Source: an uncultured bacterium
Lineage (GTDB): Bacteria; Fidelibacterota; Marinisomatia; SCGC-AAA003-L08; JACNLC01
Assembly (NCBI GenBank): GCA_964527215.1
Contig: CAZGNZ010000001.1
Span: 1,276 to 65,275, forward strand
Direction: 5' to 3'
DNA length: 64,000 nucleotides
Shown one piece after another: positions 4,911 to 50,524 of the stretch (position 1 is the first letter of the stretch; each line of letters opens with the position of its first letter). Below the pieces are notes generated by a model. It was not told the origin of the DNA, searched no databases, and was given only the letters and a program-made list of their open reading frames with translations. Made by a program: the position numbers and the translations under genes.

Positions 4911-5744
4911 ATGTTAGTTTCTTCAGAAATTCTGGGGGCTTGGATTGCAACGTTCCTGACCCTCGCCATTTTCAGCTATCTCTATGATGACAATCCGTTC
5001 TACAAAGCCGCCGAACACATTTATGTGGGCGTTTCCGCAGGGTACTGGGCCTGCATTGCTTTCTGGAATCAGGTCCAACCGAATCTGTTTGGACGGCTGT
5101 GGCCCAGACTGCCCGAAGATGCCGAAATGGGTCTGCTTATGAAAATCTGGTACGGGATTTACGGTTTTCTGGGTATTTTCAGTAAAAACGTATTCCCTGA
5201 AGGCGGGATTGAAGGTCATACCGATATCCACTGGATGTATCTCATTCCGCTGGCATTGGGCATCATGATGCTGCTGCGCCTGGTTCCGAAAGTGGGATGG
5301 CTGGCGCGGTGGGCTCTGGCATATATTGTGGGAATGGCAGCCGGTTTGAGATTTTACGGCTATCTGAATTCAGATGTGATTGAACAGGTCAAGGCCAGCA
5401 CGGTGGATTTTTCCGGATCACCGGGAAGTATTATCGGAGGTCTTCTGGTTGTGCTGGGAACGCTGGCTGGCTTGGTGTATTTCTTTTTCTCCAAAGCTCA
5501 TACCGGGGCTATCGGAAAAATCAGCAAACTGGGAATTTACTTCCTGATGATTTCATTTGGCGCTTCGTTCGGATTCACCGTGATGGGCCGAATATCGCTC
5601 CTCATCGGAAGGCTGGAAATGCTGATGGATTACACCCACAGCGAGTTTCTGCATTCAACGTGGTGGCTGTTGGGTATCATGATCATTCTGCTGGGTATCT
5701 GGGCGTTTACCGGCAAGGGACGGAAAACAGAGCTGCCCGCCTGA
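4911..5744 (+). CDS. Polytopic membrane protein of unknown function; gene 4 of module
   Basis: 277 aa. SD GGGGGGAG, 11 nt after the gene 3 stop. Multiple hydrophobic helices. Confidence 0.75.
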   Translation: MLVSSEILGAWIATFLTLAIFSYLYDDNPFYKAAEHIYVGVSAGYWACIAFWNQVQPNLFGRLWPRLPEDAEMGLLMKIWYGIYGFLGIFSKNVFPEGGIEGHTDIHWMYLIPLALGIMMLLRLVPKVGWLARWALAYIVGMAAGLRFYGYLNSDVIEQVKASTVDFSGSPGSIIGGLLVVLGTLAGLVYFFFSKAHTGAIGKISKLGIYFLMISFGASFGFTVMGRISLLIGRLEMLMDYTHSEFLHSTWWLLGIMIILLGIWAFTGKGRKTELPA

Positions 5745-5795
5745 TCTGAATCAGGAACTATTCAGTGATCCGGCCCGAGCGGATCAAAAATAACC

Positions 5796-5853
5796 GAAGC
5801 TCGAAACCAGACCATCTGAAAACTGATATTGGTTTCGGGCTTCCTTTTCGTTT
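5796..5853 (+). terminator. Candidate terminator / structured spacer after the membrane module
   Basis: GAAGCTCGAAACC ... GGTTTCGGGCTTC gives a 13-bp stem with one G-U pair and a 22-nt loop, followed by CTTTTCGTTT. The loop is long for a canonical terminator. Confidence 0.4.
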
Positions 5854-5925
5854 GATGCGGTTCCGCCTGGCAGGTGATAACCAGGCCGAGCAATCAGACA
5901 TAACATGCAATGAACAGGGATTTGT

Positions 5926-6939
5926 GTGAGTACACCAATCATTCAGGTTCGGAATTTAAAGACCTATTTCAAGACGGATGAGGGTATTGCCCGGGCTGTT
6001 GATGATGTCAGCTTTGATGTGTTTAAAGGGGAAACTCTCGGAATTGTGGGAGAATCAGGCTGCGGAAAATCAGTGACCGCTTTGTCAATCATGAGACTGA
6101 TCGATTCACCTCCCGGATTTTTCGCCGGCGGTGAAATCCTGTATAATAATGAAAATATTCTGGATCTGCCGGATCGACGTCTGAGGGAAATCCGCGGGAA
6201 TAATGTTTCCATGATTTTTCAGGAGCCCATGACATCACTTAATCCGGTTTTTACTTGTGGAAATCAGATTATGGAAGCTGTCCGCCTTCACCAGGGACTG
6301 GATAAAGCCGCTGCAGAAAAGAAGGCGGTGGAGATGCTGGAGCTGGTGGGAATCCCCGATCCACAGCAGCGGATTCATGAATATCCTCACCAGCTGTCCG
6401 GAGGGATGCGCCAGCGCGTCATGATAGCCATGGCACTGTCCTGCAACCCGGCCGTTCTGATTGCTGACGAGCCCACAACCGCTCTGGATGTGACCATTCA
6501 GGCACAAATCCTGGAACTGATGCTGGATCTTCAGAAAGAACTGGGATTATCCATCATCATGATTACCCATGACCTGGGTGTGATTGCCGAAATTGCAGAC
6601 CGGGTCATTGTGATGTACGCCGGTGAAATTGTAGAGGAAGGGACGGCGGGAGAAATCTTCAAACAGCCGTCACATCCCTATACGCACGGCCTGCTTCGTT
6701 CCATTCCCAATCTGTCAGCAATCGAGGATCATCCTGATACGCTGTACACAATCAGGGGGATGGTGCCCAGTGCTACCGAATTTCCGTCCGGATGTCATTT
6801 CCATCCCCGGTGCTCCCTTGTCACTGATCGCTGCCGCAATGAAAAACCGGTACTGGAAGTTCTGTCCGAGGACTCTACTCACGGTGTACGATGCTGGGAA
6901 ACGGATCAGGTTCAGGCAGGCGCAATGGAAACAGACTGA
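5926..6939 (+). CDS. ABC transporter ATP-binding protein, DppD/OppD (oligopeptide/dipeptide) type; no cognate permease or binding protein nearby
   Basis: GTG start. Walker A GESGCGKS, signature LSGGMRQR, Walker [12 protein letters not shown], and the Opp/Dpp-type C-terminal extension [12 protein letters not shown]...CHFHPRC. Confidence 0.9.
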
Positions 6940-34940: not shown

Positions 34941-35068
34941 CAGCAATATTGTATTTTGCCCCGGTCTGTTATTCGCTGAATTGCAGACCGGTTTTGATTA
35001 TCAGTGGACAGATGTCTCTAAACATTCAATGGGCTGCAGTTATAAAAATGTCAGGAGGTACCGCGGTG

Positions 35069-35413
35069 ATGAAACTTGAGCAGTGTGTGGGGGATATTGT
35101 ATTCGTTTCTTTCAGAGATCCGGAACGCTTTCGAGAAGTCGGTTTTGTGGTTAAATCAGGCCATTTCATGGTAAAGGGATTTGATCAGTTTGGAATCTGG
35201 CTGGCCCATCCCGGTTTGGTGCTGGTTGTGTCAGAAGATTCAAAAGGCCGGCCCCTGCCCCCGGATAAACATAAGAAATCCCGAATTGAAGCCACATTTC
35301 TGGCGACTTGGGACAATCTGGAGGTCATGATGCATTATCCGGACAGGGAAGGATTTGACTTTCCAAGTGAATTTGACAAGAAAATCGGTTTTGAAATACA
35401 TGCACCGGAATAA
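35069..35413 (+). CDS. Hypothetical protein
   Basis: Start chosen at the ATG 10 nt after AGGAGG; the track ORF starts at 34928 and overlaps the peptidase gene. No motif recognised. Confidence 0.45.
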   Translation: MKLEQCVGDIVFVSFRDPERFREVGFVVKSGHFMVKGFDQFGIWLAHPGLVLVVSEDSKGRPLPPDKHKKSRIEATFLATWDNLEVMMHYPDREGFDFPSEFDKKIGFEIHAPE

Positions 35414-35494
35414 AAATCGATTCACTGGCTGGGAATGCCTGGCCGGGATACAGAAGCATCCATATATACCAGACATAAGCGGAGGGCGGCAGCC

Positions 35495-35698
35495 ATGATA
35501 CAAGGTACAGTAAAAGTATGGGATTCCATTAAAGGATGGGGTTTCATTGAAGATGATGACGGGTACGATTTTTTTCTGCATGTTGAGCAAATACGAAAAG
35601 GACAGAAACTCAGAGTAGGTGATCGTGTTAATTTTGACGTCAGCGAAACGCAACGCGGTCCCACTGCAGAAAATGTCAGTAAAGTTACCGGCAGGTAG
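35495..35698 (+). CDS. Cold-shock domain protein (CspA family)
   Basis: 67 aa from the ATG after GGAGGG. GTVKVWDSIKGWGFIEDDDGYDFFLH matches the RNP1/RNP2 region of cold-shock proteins. Confidence 0.85.
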   Translation: MIQGTVKVWDSIKGWGFIEDDDGYDFFLHVEQIRKGQKLRVGDRVNFDVSETQRGPTAENVSKVTGR

Positions 35699-35808
35699 TT
35701 CAGGTTTATTCAAACAGTTTTTCGTGCGGTACTCCGTGGATTGGGAATTTCAACTGAACGTCTGTAAAAAACCAGCTGGTTGATAATTTTGGTGAACTTG
35801 CCAAATAG

Positions 35809-35838
35809 AGAAAGGAGGACAGACCTCCTTTCTTTTTA
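35809..35838 (+). terminator. Rho-independent terminator downstream of csp
   Basis: GAAAGGAGG-ACAGA-CCTCCTTTC followed by TTTTT. Confidence 0.75.
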
Positions 35839-35861
35839 GCCCGGAAGTTTCATGAAACCTT

Positions 35862-36219
35862 CTGGTGATATGATGATAATGGTCAATTCGGAAAAGTAAA
35901 AATTCTACACAATTTATGCGTGACTAACCTTTAGGCTTTTCCGTTAAAGAACCCATGGGATTCACGTTCTCCAAGGCATATAAAGAGAAAATGTGTAAAA
36001 TTGTACTGGTCAGTACGTTGAGTTGCATTTAACAACCCCCGTCCTCAGGACGTGGTTATGGCCAAAGGGCTGTGCCTGGTGTAAATGCGTAATAAAAAAT
36101 TGCGGTGTATGGCAGAAATCTGGCTTAAAGCCAACCGCCTTTGATGGTGGATAGTCAGATTTCAGCAATTTTTTTACAACATTTTTCGAATAGAATTGAA
36201 AATCCGTCTTCTGACGGAC
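35862..36219. repeat. Intergenic repeat, copy B (copy A homologue interrupted by a 155-nt insertion at 36023-36177)
   Basis: 35862-36022 and 36178-36219 align with 23431-23638. The intervening 155 nt is absent from copy A and contains nested stems, for example GCATTTA (36025-36031) / TAAATGC (36083-36089) and CGTCC-TCAG-GGACG. Confidence 0.8.
36125..36177 (+). repeat. 53-nt direct repeat unit, copy 1
   Basis: TTAAAGCCAACCGCCTTTGATGGTGGATAGTCAGATTTCAGCAATTTTTTTAC. It recurs at 36351-36402 with 2 substitutions and a 1-nt T-tract difference. Confidence 0.9.
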
Positions 36220-36350
36220 AAGTGTAACAGGGTGCATTCCCCGCCGCTTGTTGAAAATTCAGCCATTTGGCGTGGCAGGGAGATTCATTGCGTCAGAAGA
36301 AATGGCATTGTGCAGTAGAGATCGCGGACTGTGAGAAAGGCGGTTCGGGG

Positions 36351-36402
36351 TTAAAGCCAACCACCTGTGATGGTGGATAGTCAGATTTCAGCAATTTTTT
36401 AC
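36351..36402 (+). repeat. 53-nt direct repeat unit, copy 2 (37 nt upstream of the ECF sigma start)
   Basis: TTAAAGCCAACCACCTGTGATGGTGGATAGTCAGATTTCAGCAATTTTTTAC. The hairpin CCACC-TGTGAT-GGTGG is retained in copy 1 as CCGCC...GGTGG with a G-U pair. Confidence 0.9.
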
Positions 36403-36438
36403 GTTAACTTTTATGGATTCCGAGTTTCTAAGCCGCCG

Positions 36439-36975
36439 ATGATGATGACCGACCGGGAACTTATCGAAGATTTCCTCAGAGGCAATGAACAATCATTTAA
36501 TGACCTGATACGGAAACACCAGGCATGGGTTGTGAATTTTGTTATGCAGACGATCAGCATCAAGGAAGATGCGGAAGATATTGCACAGGATGTTTTTGTA
36601 AAAGTGTATTTTGCTCTGCCAAAGTTCCGTTTTGAATCTGAATTCAAAACCTGGCTGTACCGCATTGTCATCAACCGGATGAATAATTTTTTCAGGAAGC
36701 AGAAACTGCTGAACTGGTTTGGAGCGGAAATGCCGGCAGAGCCGGTAGATGCACCTTCAGAAAATAACGATGACCATCGCAGGGAATTGACTGCAATGGT
36801 AAATCGACTGCCGCGGGTGCAGAGAAATGTGACCATACTGAGATCCTTCCAGCAGATGAGTTTCAGACAGGTGGCTGCGGTGCTGAACATCACCGAAAAT
36901 TCTGCCAAAGTCTCATTTCATAAAGCCAAAAACAATTTAAAAAGGATGACCGATGGACAACATGTCAGCAGATGA
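36439..36975 (+). CDS. ECF-type RNA polymerase sigma-70 factor
   Basis: Start moved to ATG 36439 (MMMTDRELIEDFLRGNEQSFNDLIRKH); the track start 36367 lies inside the repeat. Region 2 AEDIAQDVFVKVY and region 4 SFRQVAAVLNITENSAKVSFHKAKNNLK. Confidence 0.88.
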   Translation: MMMTDRELIEDFLRGNEQSFNDLIRKHQAWVVNFVMQTISIKEDAEDIAQDVFVKVYFALPKFRFESEFKTWLYRIVINRMNNFFRKQKLLNWFGAEMPAEPVDAPSENNDDHRRELTAMVNRLPRVQRNVTILRSFQQMSFRQVAAVLNITENSAKVSFHKAKNNLKRMTDGQHVSR

Positions 36976-37291
36976 TTTTATCCGGGGTGTGCATCAGAAA
37001 ATAAATCGAAAAAAACAGTATCGGGTCATTACAAATACCACTGCTGTGGTGCTCATGACGGCAGTTATTGGATTTCTGTCACTTCAGCGGTTTTATAATA
37101 ATACCCCAGGAGCAGACTGGGCGGATATCCCACAGATTCAGACAGTGTATGAATGGGAGTTGTATACGGATGTTGAATCTGAACAGGCCTGGGAGTATCT
37201 CATTGACGAACTCAGCCTGGATGAATTGATGGAACTCCTGGAGAGTTTCGAAGATATTGCCTGGATTGAATCTATTCGAATGGAGGGCTAA
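36953..37291 (+). CDS. Putative anti-sigma factor (single TM)
   Basis: 112 aa. Overlaps the sigma gene by 23 nt. TM AVVLMTAVIGFLSL. The call rests on position and architecture only. Confidence 0.5.
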   Translation: MDNMSADDFIRGVHQKINRKKQYRVITNTTAVVLMTAVIGFLSLQRFYNNTPGADWADIPQIQTVYEWELYTDVESEQAWEYLIDELSLDELMELLESFEDIAWIESIRMEG

Positions 37292-37293
37292 TT

Positions 37294-37779
37294 ATGAGAA
37301 AAACACAACCGTATATCCATTTAATGTTTTTGGTTATGCCAGTATTGCTTGTTGGATTGTGGGCACAAGATCGCCCATCCGGGAAAGAAATGCGCATCAT
37401 GAAGAAATGGAAAATGATTGAGTACCTGAATTTGGATGAGACTCAGTCAGAACGATTTTTCCCGAGAGTTAATGCACTGGAAAATAATCTTGAAAATATT
37501 CGGGAACAGCAGACAAGTCTGCGCAATCGGCTTCGTAATCTGAAAGATGAAGATCATGTCGACTATCAGCAGATCAATGATCTGAATGATGAGATTTATG
37601 ATCTGGAAGAGGAAGCAAACCGAATGATTCGAGAACATATGCGAAATGTTGATGATATATTGTCTCCCGAGCAGAAAGTGAAATACACCATTTTTGAAGA
37701 TGAATTTAAAAAACAAATTAAAACGAAGGTATCTGAACGTACCCAAAGCGGCAAACGTCCATTTGGTAAGAGAAAATAA
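37294..37779 (+). CDS. Periplasmic Spy/CpxP-like (LTxxQ-type) protein
   Basis: 161 aa. Signal peptide, an all-helical charged sequence, LxxxQ motifs LDETQSERF and LSPEQKVKY. Confidence 0.55.
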   Translation: MRKTQPYIHLMFLVMPVLLVGLWAQDRPSGKEMRIMKKWKMIEYLNLDETQSERFFPRVNALENNLENIREQQTSLRNRLRNLKDEDHVDYQQINDLNDEIYDLEEEANRMIREHMRNVDDILSPEQKVKYTIFEDEFKKQIKTKVSERTQSGKRPFGKRK

Positions 37780-37822
37780 CATGCAGTAATCTCGCAGCCA
37801 ACTGGTAAAGAAAGGTGATCAC

Positions 37823-38482
37823 ATGAAAAAAGTACTGTTTATTCTCTTCCTGACATTCCTGGTCAGCGGATGTTATACCGTTGTACGGCCTCCGGCTTCT
37901 GCTGAACCGCCTGACAGCGACAACAGTGACCGGGAAGAATACATCATTTACAATGAGTACAATTATGTCCATCCCAGATACTACCATGATCACAGACGCT
38001 TCAGAAGATCGTTTTGGAGCGATCCATTCTGGGATCCGTACTATTACGACTACAATTACTATTATTACAATGACTGGTGGTACTGGGATCATTATTACTA
38101 CGGACACGGATACAGTTACGGAGGCGGCGGCGGAGACAGTGACGAGCCACAGCCCCGACGAACTCGTCCAATTGACCGGAATGACAGTGGGGACGCATAC
38201 GGCATCGGCGGCAGCAGCAGCGGCGGAAGCTATTACAGCAGCGGTAATGATAACATCAATTATTACAATGCCGAAAATCCCGATGAAGAGCAGGATGACA
38301 GCAATTCCGGTTACGCACCGACCCCCACTTATCGCACAGGCACGGTTGTCACGAAAGATCAATCCTCAAAGTCAGCCGGATCGGAAGAAAAAAAGAACGA
38401 TTCAAGCAGTTCCGGATCGAACAAATCAAGTTCAAAGAAAAATGACAGTAAAAAGCGTCGGAAAAGCAGAGGACGTGTATGA
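37823..38482 (+). CDS. Lipoprotein with extreme Tyr/Trp/Asp/Asn/Gly/Ser-rich low-complexity sequence
   Basis: Lipobox FLVSGC at aa 13-18, SD AAAGGTGA. The stretch DPYYYDYNYYYYNDWWYWDHYYYGHGYSYGGGGG (aa 71-104) has 14 Tyr and 3 Trp in 34 residues. Basic C-terminal tail KKNDSKKRRKSRGRV. Confidence 0.65.
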   Translation: MKKVLFILFLTFLVSGCYTVVRPPASAEPPDSDNSDREEYIIYNEYNYVHPRYYHDHRRFRRSFWSDPFWDPYYYDYNYYYYNDWWYWDHYYYGHGYSYGGGGGDSDEPQPRRTRPIDRNDSGDAYGIGGSSSGGSYYSSGNDNINYYNAENPDEEQDDSNSGYAPTPTYRTGTVVTKDQSSKSAGSEEKKNDSSSSGSNKSSSKKNDSKKRRKSRGRV

Positions 38483-39621
38483 CGAAAATGAGTATGATTT
38501 TCCTGCTGCTTCCAGCGTTGCTGGGAGCGCAGAATTATCTGGATGCCCTGCGGCCGTTCTACGGTTTTCAGAGTGTTCAGCCGCTTAACATCGCAATTGG
38601 CAACAGTACCGTTGCCGCCGGACAGGTTATTCCCGGCTTTACCAATAACCCGGCCAGTTGGGGAATGCATCGATTTACTTCGCTGCAGACCGGATTCAAT
38701 CTTTCAAATTTTGAATCTGGTTCAAAAAACCTTACCGGCAGCGGGTTCAGCGGCGTTGGGTTTACGCTCCCGGTTCAGGTCTATCGCGGAAGTCTGTCGT
38801 TTGGCGGTGGAATCTTTCAGGATTTGGACTTCAGCACCCGCTACGGCAATTCCCAATACACCTATAACGAAGAAGGCGGCATGTATAAAACCGTATTTGG
38901 ATTTTCAGTTGAATATTCAGAGAATTTCTTTGTTGGTGCAGATATACAGTATTATCGTGGCGGGGATGAAATGATTCGGTTTTACGACAGTGACAGCACT
39001 GATTATCTGGATATGGATTACAAAGGCTGGAGTGCATCGCTGGGTGCAATCCACCGGGTTTCACCCATGGTTCAGATCGGAGCTGCCATCCAGCTTCCAA
39101 CGGCAATTTGGGCAGATGAAACATTTACGTTTTCCAATCACCTGGACCCTGACGACTATGCTATATGGAATTCAGACTATAAACTCACCCGGCCCATGCA
39201 GGTATTTTTCGGCGCCAGCTTTCTCCACCCCATCATCAATATTTTTTATCAGGGAGATTGGACCGACTGGACCAATTTGAAATTTGAAGGGGATAATATT
39301 TTTGTTGATAATCAGCCGCTGGATGTGATTATTGATGAAGAAATCAGAGAAAACATGCAGACAACGCTGTCCCATCATCTGGGTTTTGCGTTTCACATTC
39401 CACAGATGCCCCTGCATTTTTACGGGGGATATCAATACCTGGAAATTCCCTATAAGAGCTTTTATGAGTCTGACATGCGGGAATCTGTCAGCGCCGGTAT
39501 TTCATATTTGATCAGTCAGCAGGTCAGCCTGCAATTTGGCCAAACCCGGTATTTCTGGGATTACCTTGGAGAAGAAGAAACATATACCCAAACCGCCTTT
39601 GGACTGACACTCCATTATTAA
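38479..39621 (+). CDS. Outer-membrane beta-barrel protein (unassigned family)
   Basis: ATGA overlap with the lipoprotein gene. Signal peptide MTKMSMIFLLLPALLGAQ, alternating amphipathic beta-strand pattern, aromatic C-terminus AFGLTLHY. Confidence 0.6.
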   Translation: MTKMSMIFLLLPALLGAQNYLDALRPFYGFQSVQPLNIAIGNSTVAAGQVIPGFTNNPASWGMHRFTSLQTGFNLSNFESGSKNLTGSGFSGVGFTLPVQVYRGSLSFGGGIFQDLDFSTRYGNSQYTYNEEGGMYKTVFGFSVEYSENFFVGADIQYYRGGDEMIRFYDSDSTDYLDMDYKGWSASLGAIHRVSPMVQIGAAIQLPTAIWADETFTFSNHLDPDDYAIWNSDYKLTRPMQVFFGASFLHPIINIFYQGDWTDWTNLKFEGDNIFVDNQPLDVIIDEEIRENMQTTLSHHLGFAFHIPQMPLHFYGGYQYLEIPYKSFYESDMRESVSAGISYLISQQVSLQFGQTRYFWDYLGEEETYTQTAFGLTLHY

Positions 39622-39655
39622 TCATGATTCATGATGCATCACGCATGATTGAGCA

Positions 39656-39684
39656 GGCCCCGCTTCGGCGGGGTTTGTATTTTA
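39656..39684 (+). terminator. Rho-independent terminator ending the ECF operon
   Basis: CCCCGC-TTCG-GCGGGG followed by TTTGTATTTT. Confidence 0.8.
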
Positions 39685-40014
39685 TGATGATCATATCTGC
39701 CGAATTTCCAAACCTGACATAGCAGTATTTCAAATTGACTGCCGGGAATTACTGTCCGGCGGATCAGGAATTTCCATAGTAATATTAGAGAACATCAGAT
39801 CCGTATGCATCTGCCTGCCCGCCCTTTCAAAGCAATAGGCTGACAGAATCTGTATTCATTCCATTTTCCATGCTGAAGGATATAATTGATCACCGGACGC
39901 GGGTAATTTTCCGGGTTTTATTTCATCCTGAAAAAAATTTCACCGGTGGTAAATTACTTTGCTTGAATCGATGATGGTTCTGTATGTTGAGTTTTCACAG
40001 GAGTCTGAAGCATA

Positions 40015-40374
40015 ATGGGCAAAATCTGTATTAACAATCTGAAACTCTTTGGATATCACGGATGTCTGGTTGAGGAAAATAATCTCGGCCAATGGTTCGA
40101 AATCGATGCGGAAATTCTGACGGATATTCGTGAAGCAGGCCGAACCGACAAACTGGAAAATACCGTTGATTACAGGGAAGTGATCAAGTGCATTTCGACC
40201 GTATTTGCTGAGAAAAAGTATCGCCTGCTGGAATGCCTCGCAACAGATATTGGCCACAGAATTCTGGAAATTAGGGGAATAACGGAAGTCTCCGTGACAA
40301 TTCGGAAACCGCAGGTTCCCGTGGATGCCGTACTGGACTGGGTATCTGTTTCCGAGACAATGAGGAAGGTATAA
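40015..40374 (+). CDS. folB: Dihydroneopterin aldolase
   Basis: 119 aa. INNLKLFGYHGCLVEENNLGQWFEIDAEI and TVDYREV are typical of FolB. Confidence 0.85.
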   Translation: MGKICINNLKLFGYHGCLVEENNLGQWFEIDAEILTDIREAGRTDKLENTVDYREVIKCISTVFAEKKYRLLECLATDIGHRILEIRGITEVSVTIRKPQVPVDAVLDWVSVSETMRKV

Positions 40375-49779: not shown

Positions 49780-50524
49780 AAATCAGTTTTGCATTGCTAA
49801 CTGGAAGATGCACAAGACCATTGATGAGGGTGTGTCATTTATAGAAAGTCTAAAGGACGGAGATGTGAAGGGGAATCCGGCGCAGCTGATGGTTTGCCCG
49901 GTGTATACTTCTCTGTTTTCGGTTGGACAGGCTCTCAAAGACACCGGTATTGGCCTTGGCGCGCAGAATATGCATTTTGAAGACAAAGGTGCATTTACCG
50001 GTGAGATTTCAGCCGGTATGCTCAAGGATTGCGAATGTGAATGGGTGATCCTGGGACATTCGGAAAGAAGGCATGTGTTTGGTGAATCCAATGAAATGAT
50101 TCATCTGAAGTTAACCAAAGCCCTGAACAGCGGTCTAAAGCCCATCCTCTGCATTGGAGAAAAAATCGAAGAACGTGAAGCGGGTCAGACGGCTGAAGTA
50201 TTAACGGAACAGCTGAAAACGGCGTTTCAGGGAATTGATAAATCGTCTCTGGGTGGACTGATCATTGCCTACGAACCGGTTTGGGCCATAGGAACCGGGA
50301 AAACTGCCACCACGGAAATGGTTGCTGAAGCCCATTTGCAGGTGCGGGAAATCATGAACACGCTGGGATTCAGCGGGAATGATATCCCGGTACTGTATGG
50401 GGGAAGCGTCAAACCGAATAATGCAGCAGAATTGAATGCAGTGGATGGCGTGGACGGGTTCCTGATTGGCGGAGCTTCTCTGGAGCCAAAAAGTTTTCTG
50501 GCTATATTTGATACATTTAAGTAG
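49772..50524 (+). CDS. tpiA: Triosephosphate isomerase
   Basis: IANWKMHKT, ILGHSERR, AYEPVWAIGTG and YGGSVKP. The start is 49766 or 49772 and overlaps the pgk stop. Confidence 0.93.
   Translation: MSRNQFCIANWKMHKTIDEGVSFIESLKDGDVKGNPAQLMVCPVYTSLFSVGQALKDTGIGLGAQNMHFEDKGAFTGEISAGMLKDCECEWVILGHSERRHVFGESNEMIHLKLTKALNSGLKPILCIGEKIEEREAGQTAEVLTEQLKTAFQGIDKSSLGGLIIAYEPVWAIGTGKTATTEMVAEAHLQVREIMNTLGFSGNDIPVLYGGSVKPNNAAELNAVDGVDGFLIGGASLEPKSFLAIFDTFK

Follow-up and report, generated by a model that had tools for sequence, protein, structure and literature searches.

A presumed envelope-signalling trio and a tyrosine-rich lipoprotein–barrel pair, two separately conserved modules, lie side by side in a Marinimicrobia genome

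A 64-kb stretch of DNA from an uncultured bacterium (64,000 nucleotides, referred to below as the window) contains a run of five plus-strand genes, from position 36439 to position 39621, that encode an extracytoplasmic function (ECF) sigma factor, a small membrane protein, a helical periplasmic protein, a lipoprotein of extreme aromatic composition and an outer-membrane beta-barrel. Judged from the homologues found, the source organism is a member of the Marinimicrobia (SAR406, Fidelibacterota), a phylum whose members abound in the ocean and have scarcely been studied by genetics. Comparison with homologous loci, which are given here by L numbers, indicates that the five-gene stretch is a juxtaposition of two separately conserved modules and not one conserved operon. 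Module A (36403 to 37779) is a predicted autoregulated envelope-signalling trio composed of the ECF sigma factor, a small presumed anti-sigma factor that crosses the membrane once and the periplasmic helical protein, and module B (37823 to 39621) is a lipoprotein and a FadL-fold barrel that appear to be translationally coupled and are conserved on their own. The features of the locus are as follows.

36439 to 36975, plus strand: ECF (group 4) sigma factor of 178 amino acids (aa), with Sigma70_r2/r4_2 and TIGR02937 matches
36953 to 37291, plus strand: single-pass membrane protein of 112 aa, presumed anti-sigma factor from position and topology, overlapping the sigma gene by 23 nucleotides (nt)
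37294 to 37779, plus strand: periplasmic four-helix protein of 161 aa with a CnrX/Spy/CpxP-type fold, after a 2-nt gap (Metal_resist, AlphaFold2 (AF2) model and Foldseek)
37823 to 38482, plus strand: aromatic-rich lipoprotein of 219 aa with a lipobox, 43 nt behind the helical-protein gene
38479 to 39621, plus strand: BamG-like outer-membrane barrel of the FadL superfamily, 380 aa, with an ATGA overlap with the lipoprotein gene (AF2 model and Foldseek)
36403 to 36431, plus strand: predicted autoregulatory ECF promoter, GTTAAC-N17-TTCTAA, with a motif common to most sigma orthologues
39653 to 39687, plus strand: intrinsic terminator ending the transcription unit (hairpin 39653 to 39678, then a T-run)

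Open reading frame (ORF) calling in the window verified all five genes at these coordinates, and the gene order, spacings and terminator described in an initial annotation of the same DNA were borne out, as were its product classes (ECF sigma factor, single-transmembrane protein, helical periplasmic protein, lipoprotein and barrel), with which the profile matches and structural models agree. The arrangement is not a chance one, because all five genes have homologues in other genomes.

The trio was delimited by a scan with the sigma factor alignment, which returned 80 marine metagenome loci at 38 to 55% identity; a metagenome scan with the helical-protein alignment returned no loci. A homologue of the helical protein lies approximately 380 nt downstream of the sigma gene in every one of the 67 loci with at least 900 nt of sequence 3' of that gene, and a small membrane-protein gene stands between the two in these same loci. 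Neither the barrel nor the tyrosine-rich lipoprotein was found within the 5-kb flanks of any of the 80 sigma loci, 48 of which extend at least 1.8 kb beyond the helical-protein gene. The pair was delimited by homologues of the barrel, which were found at 35 loci (31 distinct) in genomes and metagenomes of Marinimicrobia/Fidelibacterota and Calditrichota. A gene for a lipoprotein beginning with Cys-Tyr-Thr (CYT) lies upstream of the barrel gene in all 35 and is directly adjacent in 34, the exception being L017, where one ORF intervenes; in at least 21 loci the lipoprotein stop and the barrel start lie within -4 to +2 nt of each other. At approximately 28 pair loci, the upstream sequence covered (1 to 10 kb, depending on the locus) contains no sigma gene, and there is no sigma factor upstream of the closest homologue of the barrel (L007, 60% identity) either. 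The flanks of the pair vary from locus to locus and include genes for a SPOR protein, an isopentenyl pyrophosphate (IPP) transferase, TonB/ExbBD, a TonB-dependent receptor and a major facilitator superfamily (MFS) transporter; no catabolic or uptake genes are conserved in them. Two BamG homologues, Cabys_3919 and Cabys_4206, are listed for Caldithrix abyssi (PMC12611786). The homologue search with the barrel did not return a protein of the C. abyssi type strain, and an exact look-up of L020 and L021 gave unnamed clusters. Thus, the proposal of the initial annotation that the five genes are a single operon conserved as a unit does not hold, and of the two products that it expected to accompany orthologous ECF genes, the helical protein does so throughout (67/67) and the lipoprotein at none of the 80 loci of the sigma scan; its association of the lipoprotein with the barrel is supported.

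The history of the five-gene order can be followed in the closest relatives. The window shares with L125, L009, L011, L012 and L041 a syntenic block consisting of an M16 peptidase gene, a gene of 117 to 120 aa, a cold-shock gene, the trio, the pair, folB and folK, and these five loci carry an extra lipoprotein gene of 344 to 350 aa between the trio and the pair. In L040, the closest relative (helical protein 74% identical), the start of the tyrosine-rich lipoprotein gene directly follows the trio, and there the contig ends. In L037, the trio and folB are kept, and between them are a His-rich mini-lipoprotein of 92 aa and no barrel. These relatives mark the five-gene order as a fusion particular to one lineage and show that the pair can disappear; because it has been lost in L037, the pair is probably not essential. 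The extra lipoprotein (L011, 3235 to 4269; L012, 1669 to 2703; L009, 2610 to 3662; L125, 4357 to 5403) has no Pfam match and is not present in the window. The mini-lipoprotein ORF of L037 (2863 to 3141), uncalled in the source annotation, has a VIGC lipobox, the sequence SVGPP and runs rich in His, Tyr and Arg, and has the look of a relic, or of a pared-down form, of the tyrosine-rich lipoprotein.

The sigma factor possesses sigma-2 and sigma-4 domains only (Pfam Sigma70_r2, PF04542, 3.5e-16; Sigma70_r4_2, PF08281, 2e-9), scores 85.3 bits against TIGR02937 (cut-off 42.9) and has otherwise generic NCBIfam matches; its orthologues are 38 to 78% identical. A longer form starting with GTG at 36367 was excluded, because the promoter motif at 36403 to 36431 would fall inside the extension. 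The 112-aa protein spans the membrane once, with approximately 26 residues on the cytoplasmic side and an acidic tail in the periplasm, and matches no Pfam or NCBIfam family. A gene of 112 to 126 aa stands between the sigma and helical-protein genes in all orthologous loci that were examined gene by gene, and in each of these, as in the window, the small single-pass gene overlaps the 3' end of the sigma gene; from this position and topology, its product is presumed to be the anti-sigma factor. L101 has two tandem anti-sigma-like genes (5526 to 5906 and 5903 to 6289) whose C-terminal halves are near-identical, the second of which opens with a copy of the signal peptide of the helical protein; part of the trio has apparently been duplicated or recombined locally.

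The helical protein matches Pfam Metal_resist at 30.9 bits, barely above the cut-off of 29.2, and falls below the gathering threshold of Pfam LTXXQ (PF07813; 19.5 bits against 24.3), with an NCBIfam CpxP match at E 0.015. Its fold was assigned from an AF2 model (mean predicted local distance difference test score, pLDDT, 80) and a Foldseek search, because a PDB sequence search gave coiled-coil noise only. The best structural matches are CnrXs (template modelling (TM) score 0.64 to 0.72 on the target, probability approximately 1, E approximately 0.1, none reaching E 0.001), followed by Spy, STV, CpxP, NccX and ZraP, all of these matches being statistically weak. CnrX binds metal through His42, His46, Glu63 and His119 (PMC6851896). 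On comparison of sequences alone, this site is not conserved in the 161-aa protein, the mature form of which has two histidines (H88 and H115), H115 alone being kept in close orthologues and lost in distant ones. The initial annotation had proposed this Spy-like protein as the chaperone of the lipoprotein. Such a role is possible; the protein is at least as likely to be a signalling component and is read first as such, because it is inseparable from the sigma and anti-sigma genes, and CnrX ranks ahead of Spy and CpxP among its weak structural matches.

The lipoprotein has the lipobox LVSGC and a mature form of 203 residues that includes 28 Tyr and 5 Trp. Among 32 distinct family members, the lipidated Cys is followed by Tyr in 30, by Thr in all 32 and by the Pro-Pro of the motif CYT-x3-PP (Y-T-h-h-x-P-P) in 29 or 30. 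Further along is a (W)DPYYY motif (WDPYYY in the window), of which DPYYY is conserved at 84 to 97% per column, and R59 is conserved at 97%. The core reaches 75% Tyr, Trp, His and Phe per 20-aa window, and the tail is disordered and rich in Ser, Asn and Lys, mostly with a basic stretch at the end. Conservation falls on Tyr, Trp, Asp, Pro and Arg; His and Cys content is highly variable (the window protein has 5 His), with His- or Cys/His-rich runs in the lipoproteins of L004, L007 and L008. Apart from the lipobox, no Pfam or NCBIfam family was matched. By its shared motifs, the lipoprotein is judged to belong to a family that goes beyond mere compositional bias.

The barrel was modelled by AF2 from a 10-sequence alignment with a pLDDT of 86.5 and a predicted TM score of 0.83, and its strand pattern, counted from the secondary-structure string, fits a 14-stranded barrel with an N-terminal plug or helices inside; the C-terminal residue is Tyr. 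Foldseek against the PDB placed it closest to BamG of Flavobacterium johnsoniae (9n2d_B, E 5e-16) and Bacteroides thetaiotaomicron (9hiv_F, E 8e-16), with TM scores of 0.64 to 0.68, and BamG of Porphyromonas gingivalis (9hjm_F, E 4e-14) ranked seventh. CymD, TodX, FadL and TbuX came next at E 1e-14 to 1e-13 (TM 0.59 to 0.70), so that the strong matches are all of the FadL class, with porins and autotransporters far behind. The only profile match of the window barrel was NCBIfam BamG (NF053685; 41.8 bits, E 7e-11, curated cut-off 250), there being no match to Pfam Toluene_X (PF03349) or PorV. The hatch motif N57-P58-A59, a hallmark of FadL, is invariant in 28 family members; in an alignment of the window barrel with 39 relatives, N57 is invariant and P58 and A59 are at least 90% conserved, and of these 40 sequences 32 match NCBIfam BamG (best E 3.6e-26), 27 match PorV_fam (weakly) and 29 match Toluene_X. 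A profile search of 1.84 billion representative proteins gave 73 matches below 1e-30 and 2,325 below 1e-3, a compact core with a broad halo. The 10-sequence profile matched nothing in a PDB sequence search at E up to 10; the 40-sequence profile reached TbuX, BamG, TodX and PorV.

The N-terminus of the barrel is lengthened with respect to FadL, the NPA motif lying at mature positions 40 to 42 and, as read from the mutant names N33A, P34A and delta-NPA, at 33 to 35 in FadL. Against BamG chains, the alignment of the family profile begins at profile positions 2 to 7, and against TbuX, CymD and TodX it begins only at position 32. A lengthened, conserved N-terminus is said to separate BamG from the transporting FadL channels (PMC12578637). 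By the curated profile the barrel is not BamG, and it is best placed as a separate clade of the FadL/PorV/BamG superfamily. Its first residue after the predicted signal-peptide cleavage, Q18 (38530 to 38532), is a near-invariant Gln, which suggests that a pyroglutamate forms at the N-terminus, as in outer-membrane proteins of Bacteroidota. A reading as PorV or PorQ of the type IX secretion system was rejected, there being no PorV match and no conserved genes of that system adjoining the pair, and a plain porin was rejected on fold and context.

A promoter motif links the two modules. The sequence ttTTTAACyTTT...N...GTCTAA (TAAC-N17-GTCTAA) was found upstream of 69 of 76 sigma orthologues (48 distinct sites), ending 7 to 20 nt before the sigma start codon in the orthologous loci. 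The -10 element of the window, which has T for G at its first base as do those of L046 and L047, ends 7 nt before the sigma ATG (interval 36426 to 36441; 10 to 15 nt in orthologues), and the sigma mRNA is predicted to be leaderless or nearly so. The motif has only two matches in the 64-kb window, at 36403 to 36431 and at 50112 to 50138; the latter was discarded as a promoter, being inside the coding sequence of tpiA (triose-phosphate isomerase), and was judged a chance match. TAAC-N17-GTCTAA also stands 50 to 122 nt upstream of the tyrosine-rich lipoprotein gene in L002, L003, L023, L027, L028, L034, L035 and L044, the last of which belongs to the cultured Fidelibacter multiformis, where the order is terminator, motif, pair; variant sites, differing by one base or in spacing by one, precede the pair in L007, L024 and L030. 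The consensus before sigma genes and that before unlinked pairs are the same, spacing included. By an estimate from the shuffle mean, approximately 0.1 match to a looser pattern would be expected by chance in the 32 lipoprotein-upstream regions of 200 nt. Where the pair follows the trio (four loci), no motif was found before the lipoprotein gene, as in the window.

In approximately 1 Mb of sequence searched on both strands, the strict motif occurs 95 times: 70 occurrences are upstream of sigma genes and one more is before the sigma gene in L070, 11 (8 distinct) are upstream of the tyrosine-rich lipoprotein gene, and 9 precede a gene beside the sigma gene for a lipoprotein of 316 to 318 aa with weak LTXXQ similarity (5 of these were read directly and 4 were taken from sites identical to that of L101), which leaves 3 that were not assigned and the one inside tpiA. 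This distribution is therefore that of a specialised regulon promoter and not of a general one. Control of the lipoprotein and the barrel by the ECF sigma factor, which the initial annotation had suggested on speculative grounds, is thus supported by recurrence of the sigma promoter consensus before unlinked pairs.

Other sequences were noted upstream of these genes. The helical lipoprotein of 316 to 318 aa, whose LTXXQ matches are below threshold, is encoded 1.1 kb upstream of the sigma gene in marine SAR406 loci (L101, 3862 to 4887; L077, L079, L103 and L124), with the motif approximately 70 nt upstream, and is probably a further member of the regulon; L101 has a paralogue of this gene further upstream. 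In F. multiformis (L044, 9299 to 9317), L027 and L028, a palindrome, CCCGTGTCTAATATACGGG, shares bases with the predicted -10 element of the pair promoter and is a candidate operator or 5' hairpin. Boxes of repeated ATATGGAA(C/T) and an element TGRAAC-N6-TTGTAAT occur upstream of the lipoprotein gene in L004 (approximately 5050 to 5210), L010 and L013 and also in L002, L003, L023, L024 and L034, and hint at a second regulator in lineages without the ECF motif, sometimes beside it.

The intergenic sequence of the window was also examined. The terminator has an 11-bp stem with 7 GC pairs, a GCTTCGGC loop region and a T-run behind it; folB begins downstream at 40015 and is followed by folK. An Rfam scan of 35000 to 40200 gave the terminator hairpin as its sole match, below threshold, and a scan for consensus sigma-70 promoters found sites no commoner than in shuffled sequence. 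Scans of the 43-nt gap between the helical-protein and lipoprotein genes found neither a terminator nor a match to the promoter motif. Two ORFs, 37881 to 38588 (plus strand) and 37718 to 38362 (minus strand), overlap the lipoprotein gene because its codons are repetitive and rich in TAT, TAC and GAT; both were rejected as genes, the lipoprotein frame alone being kept across loci. A 56-nt direct repeat, 93% identical, occupies 36119 to 36174 and 36345 to 36400, with the copies 226 nt apart, and the second copy stops 2 nt short of the -35 element of the sigma promoter. In its relative L040, a terminator alone separates the cold-shock gene from the promoter, and the window thus has approximately 700 nt of extra sequence.

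The explanation that we favour, with moderate confidence, is that the two modules have been fused here into one transcription unit, that the pair belongs to the regulon of the sigma factor, and that the lipoprotein and barrel form a complex resembling BamG-BamH. Comparative sequence analysis shows the modularity, the folds and the shared motif; the physical complex, the way in which the signal runs and the part played in the cell are inferred. The helical protein would sense an envelope signal and control the anti-sigma factor, as CnrX does in CnrYXH and CpxP in Cpx. Where the pair stands apart from the trio, it would be driven by the promoter consensus of the sigma factor; in the window, transcription probably reads through into the pair from the sigma promoter, which is the simplest arrangement because no motif precedes the pair and there is no terminator in the 43-nt gap. 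On envelope stress, the ECF sigma factor would induce the lipoprotein and barrel, which would assemble as a 1:1 outer-membrane complex on the BamG-BamH plan: the lipidated CYT-x3-PP N-terminus may dock against the lengthened, conserved N-terminus of the barrel at its lateral opening, and the barrel may hold or expose the tyrosine-rich core and basic tail. Binding, coating and sequestration are all possible functions of the core and tail, and our guess is that the pair serves the cell as an outer-membrane component that is induced by stress and has a remodelling or protective function.

Several known systems bear on this explanation. BamG2 and BamH2 are encoded in a putative operon, and the lipid anchor of BamH lies at the BamA/BamG interface (PMC12578637); outside the Bacteroidia, in several phyla of the Fibrobacteres-Chlorobi-Bacteroidetes (FCB) group, the bamG gene stands next to bamH, as seen in Ignavibacterium, Salinibacter, Fibrobacter, Gemmatimonas and Caldithrix (supplement of PMC12611786). 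Like BamG-BamH (PDB 9n2d, 9hiv, 9hjm; PMC12611786, PMC12578637), the pair combines a 14-stranded FadL-fold barrel that has a lengthened, conserved N-terminus with an adjacent lipoprotein gene, and the mature N-terminus of the lipoprotein is its most conserved part. The partner differs from BamH, a folded crescent, in being tyrosine-rich and largely of low complexity, 180 to 290 aa long with a basic tail, and the pair, unlike BamG-BamH, is apparently ECF stress-regulated. Because the partner is unlike BamH and the barrel falls short of the BamG family cut-off, the pair is better described as a variant of the BamG-BamH design than as its orthologue. The predicted autoregulation of the trio recalls that of RpoE (sigma-E) of Proteobacteria, an ECF sigma factor that controls its own gene from a promoter of the form 'AAC ... 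N16-17 ... TCnAA' and has a regulon of outer-membrane and periplasmic folding factors. The promoters are of similar type, but the anti-sigma and sensor parts differ (no RseA, RseB or DegS), the phylum and regulon members differ, and the present system is known from sequence alone.

Certain observations weigh against the favoured explanation. The -10 element of the window is TTCTAA and not GTCTAA, and the motif is missing before approximately 17 of the 28 unlinked pairs, including all of the Calditrichota-like loci and several marine SAR406 loci, which carry other conserved upstream boxes instead. The score of the barrel (41.8 bits) is far under the 250-bit BamG cut-off, its sequence-profile distance to TbuX and TodX is about the same as that to BamG, and the Foldseek lead of BamG over CymD, TodX and FadL is small. 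The lipoprotein has no similarity to BamH or any other family that Pfam and NCBIfam could detect, and it does not have the acidic export signal of surface lipoproteins of Bacteroidota, so that it may face either side of the membrane. For the helical protein, the Foldseek E values are weak (approximately 0.1) and the three-histidine site of CnrX is missing. The promoter, the regulon and the complex are in their entirety predictions.

Other explanations fit parts of the evidence. In the model of the initial annotation, a single five-gene operon produces an aggregation-prone, cross-linkable, tyrosine-rich lipoprotein that is chaperoned by the Spy-like protein and exported by a dedicated barrel in the manner of CsgG or FapF. 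The genes do run in one direction with tight spacing, one sigma factor apparently governs the pair as well, the lipoprotein has an extreme aromatic content and is in part of low complexity, and the helical protein is in the Spy/CpxP/ZraP fold class, with weak LTXXQ and CpxP profile matches; Spy and CpxP genes are induced on envelope stress. The 161-aa protein, unlike Spy and CpxP, is below the LTXXQ cut-off and is tied to the sigma/anti-sigma pair instead of being free-standing, and it does not stand beside the approximately 28 unlinked pairs. The five-gene set is moreover confined to one syntenic subclade, most members of which have an extra gene inside it, and the barrel is a plugged FadL/BamG-type structure with an NPA motif for which neither CsgG nor FapF was among the top 50 PDB structural matches, so that export of the curli or Fap kind is not borne out and the model as a whole is very unlikely. 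It is just as improbable that the adjacency of trio and pair reflects inherited synteny only, with the pair transcribed on its own and independent of the sigma factor. Most pairs and most trios are unlinked, and the linked order is confined to one block, from the M16 peptidase gene to folB, as this would lead one to expect; the sigma promoter consensus is nonetheless found before unlinked pairs in at least four subclades, it is precisely behind the trio that the pair lacks the motif, and the 43-nt gap of the window contains neither a terminator nor a promoter match.

A metal-stress system similar to CnrYXH, in which the helical protein would be a metal sensor and the His/Tyr/Asp-rich lipoprotein a metal sink placed by the barrel, was also considered. 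The trio resembles CnrYXH/NccYXH (ECF20) of Cupriavidus metallidurans in combining an ECF sigma factor with a very short presumed anti-sigma factor of one membrane pass, a periplasmic protein whose model matches the CnrX hooked hairpin weakly and an ECF promoter of its own, and this architecture of sigma factor, short anti-sigma factor and presumed periplasmic sensor equals that of CnrYXH (PMC6851896). In addition, the best structural match of the helical protein is the Ni/Co sensor CnrX, Metal_resist is matched, and His- or Cys/His-rich runs are present in the lipoproteins of L004, L007 and L008 and in the mini-protein of L037. The gene order here is sigma, anti-sigma, sensor rather than Y-X-H, and the output is the lipoprotein-barrel pair with the weak-LTXXQ lipoproteins, not a resistance-nodulation-division (RND) efflux pump; no metal efflux genes are nearby. 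With just one of two histidines conserved among close orthologues, against the three of the CnrX metal site, and with conserved lipoprotein residues that are Tyr, Trp, Asp, Pro and Arg while His and Cys vary, metal stress is quite unlikely as the explanation, and the trio is better regarded as like CnrYXH in architecture than as a metal-sensing member of it. The barrel might alternatively be an ordinary uptake channel of the FadL/TodX type for hydrophobic or aromatic compounds, with substrate captured by the lipoprotein. It shares with FadL, TodX, TbuX and CymD the barrel fold, the N-terminal hatch or plug and the invariant NPA, 29 of the 40 aligned sequences match Toluene_X, and a surface rich in Tyr and Trp could bind such ligands. 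We consider this unlikely, given an N-terminus approximately 7 residues longer, of the kind said to set BamG apart from transporting channels, an obligate lipoprotein partner and no conserved transport, uptake or catabolic genes around the pair; an envelope-stress-type ECF promoter would also be odd for a nutrient channel. The barrel does belong to the FadL family, which the initial annotation had named as grounds for abandoning its proposal if the barrel also proved unrelated to its neighbours, and it is not unrelated to them, being tied to the lipoprotein. Finally, there is a small chance that the barrel is a FadL-type apparatus devoted to carrying its cognate lipoprotein out to the cell surface and retaining it there, the lipidated CYT-x3-PP N-terminus of the lipoprotein exiting via the lateral opening.

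We know of no established mechanism by which bacteria of the FCB group place lipoproteins on the surface. If the barrel does place or export its lipoprotein, the finding would bear on how these bacteria build their surface lipoprotein layer, the pair would be a minimal, self-contained, stress-inducible export route for a surface lipoprotein, and the displayed tyrosine-rich, basic protein might amount to a surface coat of a new kind, sticky or protective. On the favoured explanation, the pair appears to be an outer-membrane complex induced by stress that had so far escaped notice, and it suggests that the barrel-plus-lipoprotein design of the BAM (beta-barrel assembly machinery) complexes of Bacteroidota is a wider modular theme, here with a partner of extreme composition. 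The promoter TAAC-N17-GTCTAA and its targets constitute a first predicted regulon for this poorly known phylum, derived from sequence, and both the pair and the promoter are present in a cultured member, Fidelibacter multiformis IA91.

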